Program-made: the position numbers and the translations under genes
Notes under the pieces: generated by a model
Seen by the model: the letters and a program-made list of their open reading frames with translations, nothing else
Told to the model about the DNA's origin: nothing
Database searches by the model: none
From: an uncultured Collinsella sp.
GTDB taxonomy: Bacteria > Actinomycetota > Coriobacteriia > Coriobacteriales > Coriobacteriaceae
Length of the DNA stretch: 64,000 bases
Direction of reading: 5' to 3'
Assembly (NCBI GenBank): GCA_900542325.1
Contig: UQMY01000004.1
Location: 179-64,178, forward strand
Shown here: positions 12,088 through 32,230 of the stretch, piece by piece
Numbering within the stretch: position 1 is the first letter of the stretch
Layout of the letters: every line of letters starts with the position of its first letter

Positions 12088-12990
12088 TTGATTATCGAGA
12101 GTCATGCGCTGTGGGGCGAGGAGCCGACTGAGGAGTATCCGGCGACGTTTACCTATTTGGGCGCCGAGCCGCTGCCCGATAAGCCTAATGGTCGTCGCCC
12201 GGCAGCGATCATCTGCGGCGGAGGCGCGTTTACGCACATCGCTCCGCATGAGCAAGATCCGGTGGCGTTTGCGTTTTTGGATCACGGGTACCAGGCTTTT
12301 GTGCTCAACTATGTGACAAGCGGCACGGGCGACGTGAGTTTTCCGCACCCGCATGCCGATCTTGCCAAGATGGTCGCCACGGTGCGCGCTAATGCCGACG
12401 AATGGCATGTCGACCCCAAGCGCGTGTGCGTCGTGGGCTTTTCGGCGGGCGGCATGCTCTGCGCCTCGTTAGCAACGCAGTGGAAGACCGGTCCCTTTGC
12501 GGCGCTTGCCGGGGTGCGTCCGGATGATATTCGCCCCGACGCCGTGGTGCTGGGCTATCCATTGCTCGACCTTGCCTATGTGCGCGACACGCAGACGCGC
12601 GATCCGCGCATTGACCTGCGCGTGCCCAAGACGGGCGGCAAGACGGGACGTGATTTGCTTAACGACTACCTGTCGATGGTGACGGGCGGTGAGGCAACCG
12701 ACGAACACTTGGCCGACATCTGCCCCACCACGCATGTTTCGCGCCAGATGCCGCCGACCTTTGTGTGGGGCGTGTCCGACGACAAGACGGCGCCGATCGC
12801 GCAGGTCTACCCGTTTGCGCAGCGCATGGCCGAGGAGGGCGTTGCATGCGAGATGCACGTCTTTGACCAGGGCGGCCACGGCCTTTCGCTCGGCAACGCC
12901 AACACCGCAGTCGACAACGAGGACAAGCAGGTGGCGGTCCGTCCTTGGATTCGTCTAGCCTTCCGCTTCCTCGAGCGTCACGGGTTTTAG
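12088..12990 (+). CDS. Alpha/beta hydrolase (esterase/lipase-like).
   Basis: A GFSAGG nucleophile elbow (GxSxG) and a DxxxxHGL-type catalytic His region are present, consistent with the acetyl-esterase family. Confidence 0.75.
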   Translation: MIIESHALWGEEPTEEYPATFTYLGAEPLPDKPNGRRPAAIICGGGAFTHIAPHEQDPVAFAFLDHGYQAFVLNYVTSGTGDVSFPHPHADLAKMVATVRANADEWHVDPKRVCVVGFSAGGMLCASLATQWKTGPFAALAGVRPDDIRPDAVVLGYPLLDLAYVRDTQTRDPRIDLRVPKTGGKTGRDLLNDYLSMVTGGEATDEHLADICPTTHVSRQMPPTFVWGVSDDKTAPIAQVYPFAQRMAEEGVACEMHVFDQGGHGLSLGNANTAVDNEDKQVAVRPWIRLAFRFLERHGF

Positions 12991-13190
12991 TTACGGCGTT
13001 TTACCAAACGCCGTAACTGCTCGACGCTGCAAGTCCGCCAGGGCGGCAATCTGCCTTTCAACTTCGGCGGCATGACCAGAAGGTCAATGCCGCCTCGTTT
13101 CAAGGCACCTTGCTCGCTCTGGCGGGTTTTCGCTGTCGGTTCCAAGAGCATCGAGGTAGTCATTGGGGACGTTCTTAAGCGACTAGTCGA
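12989..13190 (+). ncRNA. Family 2 structured intergenic module, copy 1, a candidate cis-regulatory RNA or sRNA. It starts at the esterase stop codon and precedes feoAB.
   Basis: It is homologous over about 170 nt to positions 32036-32230. Shared blocks include TAGTT.CG.CGTT, CGCTGC, CAATCTG, CATGACCARAAGGTCAATGCC, TTTCA.GSCACCTTG, CGCTCTGG and AAAGGGACA. Compensatory changes occur in three helices, with G-U wobbles only on the plus strand. Confidence 0.5.
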
Positions 13191-13315
13191 AAGGGACACT
13201 CTTGCGGCACTTGGCACTCGGGGACGTTCCTTTTGTGCCGGCACTTGGGGACGGTCCTTGCACCGATCTGTCGATTGAACATCGTTGCATGTTCGCGCTA
13301 TCATGCATGGTTAAA

Positions 13316-30500: not shown

Positions 30501-32035
30501 CCACCCGTCGTCCGGTCGCCATCGGTACCGCGGTCGGCATTATTGCCGCCCAGTCCATCGGCGAGCCCGGTACGCAGCTTACGATGCGTACCATTCACTC
30601 CGGCGGCGTCGCTGGCGTCGACGATATTACGCAGGGTCTGCCTACGGTCAGCCGTATGTTCGATATCGTCGGCAACGTCAACGAGAAGATCCTGGGTCGC
30701 GAGGCCGAGCTGGCTCCGTACTCTGGTCACCTCTCGATTAAGCCCGAGAAGTCCGAGTACGTGCTGACGCTCACCGACTCCGAGGATCACACCCGTGTCC
30801 TCGACGAGCGTCGCGTCCCCGCTTCGGTGCGCTTCATGCCCGAGATCGAGGACGGCTGCGAGGTTCGCGCTGGCGACCAGATCACCAAGGGCTTCGTCAA
30901 CTTCCGCAACCTGCGCAAGCTGACCGACATCGAGTCGACGATGCACACCTTCGTCGAGAGCGTCAAGGACGTCTACACCAGCCAAGGCGTCGACCTGAAC
31001 GACAAGCACATCGAGGTGCTCGCACGTCAGATGCTGCGTCGCGTTCAGATCACCAACCCCGGCGACTCCAAGTACCTGCTTGGTCAGTACGTCGACCGCT
31101 ACGAGTTCGCTGACGAGGTCGAGCGCGTTGCCCGTCTGGGCGGTCAGGCTCCCGTGGCCGAGCCCGTCATCCTGGGTACGCTCAAGGTCGCGTCCAACAT
31201 CGACTCCTGGCTGTCGAGCGCTTCGTTCATCCGTACCGCCGGCGTCCTTACCGAGGCTGCCATCGAGGGCAAGGTCGACCACCTGCTCGACCTTAAGTCC
31301 AACGTCATCGTCGGTAAGAAGATCCCGGCTGGTACCGGCCTCAAACCGTATGCCAACGCCAAGCTGACGTATCGCACGGCCGACGGCTACGTGGACATCG
31401 ACGGCCCGGCTTCGCCCAACGCCAAGTCGCTGCCTGAGTGGGCCCCTGTGGAGCTCAAGGACCTGGACGAGCAGCTCCCGCAGCAGCTCGACTGGGCCGG
31501 CTACGACGAGTTCGGTGGTGCTGACGGTTCGTTCACCCGCAACGGCCATACCATCTCCGCCGAGAAGGCTCGCCTGTACCTGTTCGACGACCTGGGCGTG
31601 TCGCAGCGTTGGACCAACAAGTTCAGCGAGGTCGGCATCGAGACGGTCGGCGACCTGGTCGGCAAGTCCGAGGAGGATCTGCTGCGCATCGATGGTATCG
31701 GTGCTAAGGCGATCGAGGAGCTCCGTGACGGCCTGGAGGCCCACGACCTGCTCTACATCCTCGAGAACAACGACGACGTTGCCGACGAGGAAGACCTCTC
31801 GCAGCTGCTGCAGATGGTCTTTAGCCCCGACGGTCCGGACGATATCCTGCTGGGTACCTCCGCTCCGACGCATCACGCCGACGCCGACGAGGAGCTCCTG
31901 GGCGCCCCGATCGACGACAAGAAGGCTCCCGCCAACGGCGCGATCAACGAGGACATGGCGTCCCTCGACGAGCTGCTCAACCAGCTCGTGGACACCGACG
32001 ACGCCGAAGAGGCCAAGGACAACGACGAGGAGTAA
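27560..32035 (+). CDS. rpoC: DNA-directed RNA polymerase subunit beta'. It has a C-terminal extension of about 190 aa containing an HhH motif resembling the alpha-subunit C-terminal domain, plus an acidic tail.
   Basis: A zinc-binding [23 protein letters not shown] and the NADFDGD active site are present. GTG at 27560 sits 8 nt after AAGGAG. The C-terminus contains ...[35 protein letters not shown]... and then a D/E-rich tail. Confidence 0.97.
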
Positions 32036-32230
32036 TTAGTTCCGCCGTTCTAACGAACGGCGGCGACCTCCGTCGCTGCGCGGCCCCCAGAGCTACAATC
32101 TGTCATTCAAAAGGCAGGGCATGACCAAAAGGTCAATGCCCTGCCTTTTTCATGCCACCTTGTACGCTCTGGGGGCCGCTCGCTTGCGTATGCTCAACCT
32201 GTTGCGTTCCGTTGATCCCTTGCCAAAAAG
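32036..32230 (+). ncRNA. Family 2 structured intergenic module, copy 2. It lies immediately after the rpoC stop and upstream of the ECF sigma factor gene.
   Basis: Hairpin 1 is CCGCCGTTC-TAAC-GAACGGCGG. A long-range helix GGCCCCCAGAGC / GCTCTGGGGGCC (12 bp) encloses hairpin AGGCAGGGCATGACCAAAAGGTCAATGCCCTGCCT followed by TTTTT. All three helices covary with copy 1. Confidence 0.5.

Follow-up and report, generated by a model that had tools for sequence, protein, structure and literature searches.

The window analysed in this study, a stretch of 64,000 nucleotides of an uncultured Collinsella sp. (contig UQMY01000004.1, positions 179 to 64,178), contains two copies of a structured extragenic repeat, the first directly behind an esterase gene and the second directly behind rpoC. 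We found that they are members of a previously uncatalogued gene-end repeat family of Collinsella that bears signs of host-level function. The unit was placed at the 3' ends of co-oriented genes, its helices were maintained by compensatory changes, and at orthologous sites it stood where relatives have ordinary terminators. Based on these comparisons of sequences, we hold it somewhat probable that the unit is a mobile or replaceable 3'-end module of the upstream gene, a terminator combined with a stabiliser.

The two copies (12989-13190 and 32036-32230) aligned from the upstream stop codon onward, as the first-pass annotation had noticed. Similarity began exactly at the stop codons, and the coding sequences 5' of them (esterase and rpoC) were unrelated, so a segmental duplication was rejected. 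Pfam and open reading frame (ORF) evidence agreed with the gene identities given earlier (alpha/beta-hydrolase esterase, FeoA-FeoB, rpoC, and extracytoplasmic function (ECF) sigma factor), FeoA-FeoB being a fusion. The 21-nt core CATGACCARAAGGTCAATGCC occurred just twice in the window, on the + strand at positions 13071 and 32120, with 0 occurrences expected by chance. A covariance model of the core, R1, likewise found only the two known copies in the window (134.7 bits for copy 1 and 116.3 bits for copy 2). Anchored conservation profiles gave a unit of about 170-180 nt, running from ~82 nt before the core to ~90 nt past the core start (~12990-13155 in copy 1 and ~32036-32213 in copy 2), rather than the up to 250 nt first proposed; the looser similarity that had been followed to AAAGGGACA belongs to another repeat family, that of the GGGGAC-loop hairpins. 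The unit is built of a 12-bp hairpin (H1), a rod of 105-115 nt made of four stacked helices, and a short tail. H1 is missing in two contexts, and the asymmetric loops of the rod are conserved. P1 at the base and P4 at the tip form one coaxial stack, with P2 (GCAA/TTGC) and P3 (GCCTT/AAGGC in copy 1) between them. Thus, the second hairpin and the long-range helix described earlier are both real, but they are parts of one continuous rod together with P2 and P3, not separate elements. The minimum free energy (MFE) was -86.4 kcal/mol for copy 1 and -96.2 kcal/mol for copy 2 (z-scores -11 and -12). The parts of the two copies are as follows.

12988-12990, + strand: TAG stop of the esterase gene (ORF 12088-12990; Pfam BD-FAE/Abhydrolase_3)
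12990-13017, + strand: copy 1 H1, GTTACGGCGTTT-TACC-AAACGCCGTAAC, a perfect 12-bp stem (pattern match; family covariation)
13023-13030, + strand: copy 1 5' flank motif GACGCTGC ((near-)invariant columns in 87 copies)
13031-13129, + strand: copy 1 rod (covariance model, 134.7 bits; MFE fold; RNAalifold; pair counts)
13031-13045 with 13115-13129, + strand: copy 1 P1
13046-13049 with 13110-13113, + strand: copy 1 P2, GCAA/TTGC
13053-13057 with 13102-13106, + strand: copy 1 P3, GCCTT/AAGGC
13066-13077 with 13082-13094, + strand: copy 1 P4, closed by the loop AGAA, with a bulged A at 13086
13127-13135, + strand: copy 1 rod base, with T-run and 3' flank motif TTTTCGCTG (terminator-like match)
13136-13155, + strand: copy 1 tail, loosely conserved; family consensus GTCGTTGCCAAAACATCGGCGTTGCCTTGG (anchored profile, alignment)
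32033-32035, + strand: TAA stop of rpoC, followed by TTAG (ORF 27554-32035)
32039-32067, + strand: copy 2 H1 variant GTTCCGCCGTTC-TAAC-GAACGGCGG(C)GAC (alignment, fold; 2/35 variable columns)
32072-32185, + strand: copy 2 GTCGCTGC motif, rod and TCGCTT (covariance model match 32070-32187, 116.3 bits; fold)
32080-32094 with 32165-32179, + strand: copy 2 P1
32109-32126 with 32131-32149, + strand: copy 2 extended P4, closed by AAAA and followed by TTTTT (32146-32150)
32186-32213, + strand: copy 2 tail, with the right edge of the unit at ~32213-32216 (homology ends)

In copy 1, the G of the esterase TAG stop is the first base of H1, and the terminator pattern matched 13109-13126 plus TTTTCGCTGT. 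The right edge of copy 2 was set by two other loci (loci from other genomes are designated L plus a number): homology with L050 stops at ...GATCCCTTG, and homology with L130, where the element is absent, restarts at CTGCCAAAAGGGG. A conserved peptide within the element was considered and rejected, as the ATG-initiated frames of the two copies diverge after a 1-nt indel, while the helices covary between subfamilies.

To delimit the family, a 19-nt core was scanned against one genome per species, which gave at least 120 loci; among the matches listed, nearly all were from Collinsella. A profile search of the collected sequence contained 118 full-length copies, and R1 added about 11 copies in 716 kb of flanking DNA. 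The element was present in 10 places of a 900-kb record of C. aerofaciens, none of them within the first 50 kb, which would put the number per genome in the tens. The copies stood after many different genes, in at least 27 genomic contexts. H1 was never seen without the core (88/88), and it was therefore rejected as an independent family of short palindromes. No family of Rfam 15 matched the window at the gathering thresholds, and a scan of 12900-13400 at E<=10 returned only chance-level matches of 14-17 bits to unrelated families, in agreement with the initial statement that no known riboswitch class could be recognised. An association with phages was also rejected, for the 7 IMG/VR sequences that matched the 19-mer had unrelated flanks throughout and were attributable to chance. 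The supplementary files of Fremin and Bhatt (2021) that were searched contained no sequence match to the element. Their candidate HMP2_10134 (Collinsella, beside ProB/PUA genes) might overlap with the H1-less copy found behind proB.

The structure was evaluated on 87 non-redundant copies from other genomes and 45 base pairs, using slid controls in which the pairing partners were shifted by 1-3 columns. Paired bases accounted for 94.9% of the cells, compared with 28-40% in the controls. Changes on both sides were seen at 24 of the 45 pairs, and the observed covariation was reached by no shuffle. Without guidance, RNAalifold recovered the same rod from the 87 copies (39 pairs, 20 with compensatory changes), with P1 extended to ~19 bp. 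Double changes also affected 8 of the 12 pairs of H1, and one copy with CATGGCC...GGCCTATG showed compensation even within the apical stem that the search pattern had fixed. The three helices said to be kept by compensatory substitution were thus confirmed, and the relatives, in which the earlier reader had considered that covariation might be lacking, covaried strongly. While the helices vary, the internal loops TCT/ACC and TTCAA/TTTCA and the bulged A are invariant, and the flanks are constant too, with GACGCTGC on the 5' side and the T-rich TCGCTG on the 3' side.

The scores of R1 were strand-specific (116-142 bits in sense and 37-56 bits in antisense). The wobble pairs had been taken as diagnostic of plus-strand RNA, which did not hold: G.U and A.C cells were about equally frequent across the family (65 vs. 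71; about 45 vs. 39 in a tally of the rod only), and the minus strands folded as well or better (-88.8 kcal/mol for copy 1 and -102.8 kcal/mol for copy 2). Wobble asymmetry was therefore discarded as a strand marker. What matters is a folded single strand, whether RNA or DNA.

Selection on the element was assessed at the rpoC site, where the copy was found in nine species-level genomes, and the rod columns were counted without the 19 nt used for ascertainment. Only 1 of 96 columns of the rod was variable, compared with 30 of 199 third codon positions of rpoC (Fisher p = 6e-5) and 81 of 118 columns of the intergenic DNA farther 3' (p = 1.5e-28), figures that share the caveat that each locus was chosen for an intact 19-mer. 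H1 plus linker was variable at 2 of 35 columns. The rpoC rod thus evolves slower than synonymous sites. Its subfamily was found at that site only, so homogenisation by other copies is an unlikely cause of the conservation. In other contexts in which the subfamily was unchanged, the identity of the rod was mostly above that of third codon positions.

The placement of the family was regular. In 25 of 27 contexts, the unit adjoined the 3' end of a co-oriented gene (24 protein genes and rnpB). A same-strand ORF, coding-like by its GC content at the first, second and third codon positions (GC1/GC2/GC3), ended 29-37 nt before the core in 94 copies, which represent 24 independent upstream-gene contexts; these stops (57 TAG and 37 TAA) lie 0-7 nt ahead of H1. 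The carriers include genes of transcription and translation (rpoC, rpoD, a class-I (RF1/2-type) release factor, three aminoacyl-tRNA synthetases, and QueA), genes of metabolism (ProB, DapH, DAHP synthase, RpiB, a PfkB kinase, and a short-chain dehydrogenase), and others (HtpG, LytR, GntR- and MerR-type regulators, an ABC ATPase, and the esterase). The avoidance of TGA was rejected as a target signature: the carriers end in TAG or TAA, yet TGA is rare genome-wide (it closes 4 of the window's 37 confident ORFs and 17 of the total of 534), with TAA and TAG about equally used. Copies without H1 obeyed the same placement. The stop of proB lies 5 nt before the core of its H1-less variant, and in 13 loci an H1-less core lies 4 nt 3' of the RNase P RNA gene:

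L010:1047-1529 and 12 orthologous loci: RNase P RNA (RF00010, 275.8 bits), then an H1-less rod 4 nt later

Considering that RNase P RNA has no stop codon, the placement rule refers to the 3' end of the gene. At L085:3275-3500, a second, strongly diverged rod follows in tandem after RNase P RNA, while L089:3170-3322 holds the diverged rod only; the diverged rod has the same architecture and the GACGCTGC/TCGCT flanks, with another tip.

No such regularity was seen on the downstream side. The orientation of the next gene could be scored in 19 contexts; it was convergent in 10 and co-directional in 9. The rpoC copy was kept at L050, where the DNA past ...GATCCCTTG is unrelated and the ECF sigma gene is absent. 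Conversely, L130 has the same arrangement of rpoC and ECF sigma gene without the element, and other ECF sigma homologues (L131 and L133) lie in different neighbourhoods, again without it. The esterase copy is present at L102, with a convergent gene downstream in place of feoAB, and the element is absent behind esterase homologues that share 70-88% identity. Downstream of copy 1, at 13275-13304, feoAB has a sigma-70-like promoter match. Judged from these comparisons, each copy appears to belong to its upstream gene and not to the downstream one. The proposal of a leader, riboswitch or attenuator shared by feoAB and the ECF sigma gene therefore conflicts with the anchoring of the unit at upstream gene ends, and the downstream genes, which were to be checked in relatives for a consistent link to iron or stress, differ between orthologous copies. 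Nor did the consensus and MFE folds contain any mutually exclusive or conserved competing pairing. The terminator hairpin had been pictured within a competing helix, whereas the MFE, centroid and consensus folds all contain every helix at once, in a nested and coaxial arrangement.

Two observations concern the DNA between copy 2 and the ECF sigma gene. This stretch yielded no sigma-70-type promoter; a conserved TGAAAC-N17-CGTATC is present at window 32262-32300, a candidate that we take to resemble the GGAAC...CGT-type promoters of autoregulated ECF sigma factors. Numerous database entries for this sigma factor have 247 aa and start with MTKRSMPCLFHATLYALG, from an ATG that lies in the apical hairpin of copy 2. 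The frame opened by this ATG (32121-32264) stops in the window at 32262-32264, and the sigma factor occupies 32339-32863. The 247-aa form, with a spurious N-terminus of 75 residues, looks like a gene-calling artefact that arose from an indel of 1 nt within the T-run near 32235.

Furthermore, the unit has the hallmarks of an intrinsic terminator. A T-run directly follows the GC-rich base of P1 in 72 of 87 copies. Another 14 copies have no T-run there, and all of them have at least 5 T in the 6-nt window after P4; one copy has neither. Accordingly, a GC-rich hairpin with a T tract on the transcribed strand, with tracts of 4-5 T, was found in 86 of 87 copies. Where the element is absent from an orthologous slot, ordinary terminator-like hairpins with a T-run are found (L130 after rpoC, and L047). 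At L130, the ~75 nt between the TAA stop and the shared CTGCCAAAAGGGG contain an ordinary terminator-like hairpin and T-run, CCTGTTTCCCAACAGGGAAGCGGG TCTTTTGTTG, so that at the rpoC site the element substitutes for ~75 nt and is not a plain insertion.

A clean insertion was seen after a serine-dehydratase-like gene. In the filled site L089, ...ATGCTAG is followed by TTACGCGG ... ~205 nt ... TATTGGCTAG and then by GACAG, while the same site is empty in L083 and L110 (...GTGCTAGGACAG). CTAG (or TA/TAG) stands on both sides of the insertion, and the overlapping stops of two convergent genes are preserved. A third relative, L047, has the conventional terminator at that site. After the PfkB gene (L005), TAG flanks the element on both sides, and another repeat, AATGAGCGTGGATAATCTCCCG...GGGAGATTTTCCACGCTCGAG, fills the same slot elsewhere (L040:5700-5830 minus strand, L058, and L119). 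After rpiB, filled and empty sites (L012 vs. L005 and L072) differ with no clean duplication. Several orthologous sites carry different rod subfamilies in different species. At L117:3985-4110, L061 and L049, a truncated first unit (H1 and GACGCTGCGCC) is followed by TTTG and a complete second unit, an arrangement that would indicate nested insertion or recombination between copies. The two ends of the unit were inspected for terminal inverted repeats and none were present, the left end GTTACGCGG... and the right end ...GCGTTGCCTTGG not being mutually inverted. Taken together, the element moves or is exchanged.

Given the position at gene ends, the sense orientation, the terminators in the empty sites, and the complementary distribution of T-runs, we lean towards a portable 3'-end module as the explanation. 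According to this hypothesis, the unit would be transcribed as the 3' UTR (untranslated region) of the upstream gene and fold into H1 and the rod. The combination of a GC-rich base, that of the rod or of P4, and the T-run behind it would halt RNA polymerase, and the stable hairpins would shield the 3' end from exonucleases. As H1 starts at the stop codon, a terminating ribosome would have to melt it, so that folding might be coupled to the end of translation. Spread and terminator replacement could proceed through insertion or recombination at the DNA level, which would be able to duplicate a short target (CTAG).

Several observations weigh against this hypothesis. The T-runs are short (TTTT, TTCT) and interrupted. 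A rod of 105 nt, with asymmetric internal loops that do not vary, a bulged A, and flanks of GACGCTGC and TCGCTG, goes far beyond what termination needs, an elaboration that points to recognition by a putative factor. The P1 3' strand of copy 2 is equally conserved, although it is located past P4 and the T5 terminator. These invariant loops and flanks, together with the conserved P1 strand of copy 2, keep alive the rival readings of a selfish element, a processed RNA and a translational brake. Moreover, since G.U is not favoured over A.C and both strands fold equally, an RNA and a single-stranded DNA are undistinguished as the selected form. Every copy was ascertained via an exact match to the 19-nt core, which may have enriched well-preserved copies. 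Finally, two contexts break the placement rule, lying beside the 5' end of a divergent gene: the L006 group (L006:6440-6700, L106, L070, and L092), where the element stands just after an operator-like palindrome TTAGTTAGG...CCTAACTAA, and L034:5207, whose copy (L034:5170-5324) is diverged and scores 71 bits.

One rival is a purely selfish, non-autonomous mobile element, MITE- or REP-like, whose H1 and rod would serve a transposase or recombinase as single-stranded DNA or cruciform. The host would gain nothing, and the gene-end location would simply be where insertions are tolerated. The presence or absence at orthologous sites, the CTAG duplication, the occupation of the same slot by different subfamilies or other repeats, and the truncated and tandem copies (L117, L061, L049, and L085) all fit such an element, as do the lack of wobble asymmetry, the equal folding of both strands, and the asymmetric loops, whose conservation suits recognition by a protein. 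The intergenic regions are, in addition, mosaics of several repeat families, one of which was hit by an IS110 element. Tolerance alone, however, does not predict that the orientation follows the upstream gene, at an offset of 0-7 nt, in 25 of 27 contexts. The selfish reading is also at odds with the rpoC rod, more conserved than synonymous sites in nine species-level genomes, and with T-runs that are complementary between subfamilies; terminal inverted repeats and an associated transposase gene are both missing (RAYT itself was not searched for), and a clean duplication was seen in one pair only. We consider this explanation unlikely.

A second possibility combines mobility with function: a homing terminator cassette, mobile in one orientation and delivered to exact 3' boundaries of genes, that is, stop codons and the end of RNase P RNA. 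Delivery would then sense gene ends rather than a DNA motif, through coupling to the termination of transcription or translation or through a guided recombinase, and a dedicated protein would recognise the surface made up of the invariant asymmetric loops, the bulged A, and the flanks GACGCTGC and TCGCTG. We regard such a cassette as distinctly unlikely. If it does exist, the cassette and the mycobacterial terminators discussed below would point to a general, factor-assisted and sequence-specific formation of 3' ends in Actinobacteria.

Thirdly, stable structured RNAs might be cut from the 3' UTRs, for instance through cleavage of the 19-23 bp P1-P2 duplex by RNase III, and act in trans; in a variant, they would titrate an RNA-binding protein, and the conserved loops would be a surface for the recognition of protein or RNA. 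The invariance of loops, bulge and flanks alongside covarying helices agrees with this, and so does strong purifying selection over the whole rod, including parts that a P4 terminator does not need. The sense orientation after highly expressed genes, from whose position transcription is presumed, is also in line with it. Nevertheless, tens of near-identical copies follow unrelated genes with no obvious common target, and the same features fit recognition at the DNA level, which makes processed RNAs improbable in our view. The first-pass annotation had offered a pair of paralogous small RNAs derived from 3' UTRs as one option; the 3' UTR location comes nearer the truth than a leader, but the elements are a family with tens of copies per genome and not a pair.

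Lastly, the unit could act as a brake on translation termination, a stable hairpin less than 15 nt from the stop stalling ribosomes and lowering the expression of the upstream gene. In E. coli, REP elements with a hairpin within 15 nt of the stop have been reported to reduce upstream expression, and in essentially all H1-bearing Collinsella copies H1 starts between -1 and +7 of the stop. On the other hand, the H1-less copies obey the same placement (the 5-nt offset at proB and the untranslated RNase P RNA), and a brake seems costly in essential, highly expressed genes such as rpoC, rpoD and those of the tRNA synthetases. This idea is accordingly very improbable. A cis-regulatory leader for feoAB and the ECF sigma gene, which had been suggested by the co-directional genes behind both window copies and by the hairpin and T5 nested in a longer helix of copy 2, is essentially excluded by the convergent downstream genes (10 of 19 scorable contexts), by rpoC copies without the ECF sigma gene (L050) and the converse (L130, L131, and L133), by an esterase copy without feoAB (L102), by nested rather than alternative helices, by the promoter-like site of feoAB downstream of the element, by functionally unrelated upstream genes, and by the lack of an Rfam match.

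Other repeats occur around the element. Members of a second family are short hairpins with variable stems (TAGTCAT/ATGACTA, GGCAC/GTGCC, and GATCC/GGATC) and the conserved loop TTGGGGACGTTC(C/T)TT; they were seen in the window at 13156-13265 and 32217-32240, at L128:3200-3240 and 4560-4610, and in many other loci. This unit is often a full palindrome, TAGTCATTGGGGACGTTCTTAAA...TTTAAGAACGTCCCCAATGACTA, and copy 1 is followed by three of them. An element with an IS110-family transposase lies inside a GGGGAC-loop hairpin of C. aerofaciens NZ_OY725717.1, between TTGGG and GACGTTC, so that this hairpin motif may be an IS110 target. A third family is an 85-nt palindromic unit, TTAAGTTTGTCGCGAGTTCCGCACGAGCCGGAGGCCACTTAATGTGGCCTCCGTGCGAGCC...CAAACTTAA, with three copies in the window (21160-21244, 34125-34209, and 51397-51481; 62-100% identity) and a further occurrence at L050; it had no Rfam match at the gathering thresholds. 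At L138:2904-3090, another long inverted repeat, GATGAGACAAGGTCGTCAGACTTCTTTGTCTCATG ... CATGAGACAAAGAAGTCTGACGACCTTGTCTCATC, is located 3' of an esterase homologue of 88% identity that lacks the element. Antisense to rpoB/rpoC, the minus strand of the window carries a frame of 2628 codons (23990-31876), which is taken to be a by-product of high GC3 and not a gene.

These results remove the false lead of an iron- or stress-responsive riboswitch and explain a recurrent artefact, the ECF sigma database entries with a spurious N-terminus of 75 residues. They also reveal that an abundant genus of the human gut has structured repeats at its stop codons, which are under purifying selection and stand in for ordinary terminators. 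In practice, R1 can be used for masking in searches for non-coding RNAs, the filled and empty sites can serve as strain markers, and the unit is a candidate portable terminator for the engineering of Coriobacteriia.

The family belongs among the dispersed, structured, terminator-like extragenic repeats and introduces no new principle; its remaining novelty lies mostly in the unexplained precision of its placement and in its invariant loops. With canonical intrinsic terminators it shares the GC-rich stem and T-run (86 of 87 copies), and it occupies the terminator slot of relatives. Canonical terminators, however, are short and not conserved in sequence between genes, whereas the Collinsella hairpin has ~105 nt and is near-identical after unrelated genes. 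The Correia repeats of Neisseria and the ERIC/IRU of enterobacteria are non-coding repeats of 100-170 bp that form long RNA hairpins when co-transcribed and can alter the processing, stability and termination of mRNAs. They are present at some orthologous sites and absent from others, duplicate a short target that contains TA, carry inverted repeats at their termini, and enter many intergenic positions in both orientations. In contrast, the Collinsella unit is without terminal inverted repeats, locked in orientation, and anchored at gene ends. Like the REP/BIME of enterobacteria and pseudomonads, it is an extragenic, repeated, hairpin-forming unit of presumably transcribed 3' regions that forms mosaics with other motifs. 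REP/BIME are thought to stabilise the upstream mRNA and to serve as targets of insertion sequences, and the parallel in Collinsella is the IS110 element in the neighbouring GGGGAC hairpin. A REP is an imperfect palindrome of 20-40 nt with a GTAG head and a RAYT transposase, whereas the Collinsella unit has ~175 nt, an H1 that begins with GTTACG, no conserved GTAG head, a fixed offset from the stop codon, and a single orientation relative to the gene. Nor are there similar subterminal hairpins at both ends as in the palindrome-associated elements derived from IS200/IS605, where a single TnpA recognises both, for H1 stands at the left end only and nothing H1-like was found in the tail.

From the same genus, the Collinsella-1 RNA motif (RF01700) is a candidate structured RNA of C. 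aerofaciens and human-gut metagenomes with only six known representatives (Weinberg et al. 2010, PMC2864571). It was rejected as the identity of our element: its sequence is different, beginning with GGCAGCUCGCAGGAGUGCGGACUG..., and it matched neither the window nor, at E<=10, 12900-13400. The closest documented analogue would be TRIT, the "Tuberculosis Rho-independent terminator" of Mycobacterium, with 147 copies in M. tuberculosis (Gardner et al. 2011, PMC3152330). TRIT has a very narrow distribution around the stop codon and is restricted to a lineage, in an actinobacterium with few canonical terminators, and its authors suspected an additional factor that binds the motif (PMC3152330). It is largely palindromic, bidirectional, and centred ~8 nt inside the coding sequence (PMC3152330). 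The two families were compared by description, and the hosts of ours, among the matches listed, were almost all Collinsella. They are alike in a hairpin conserved in sequence and structure, in many dispersed copies, and in the anchoring at stop codons (94 copies in 24 contexts for Collinsella). They differ in that the Collinsella unit begins at or just after the stop and is strand-asymmetric (116-142 vs. 37-56 bits), and in that it is far larger and composite, with H1, a four-helix rod and a tail, and polymorphic for filled and empty sites. As TRIT was the only close parallel found, some Actinobacteria may use sequence-specific, possibly factor-assisted modules at the 3' ends of their genes.

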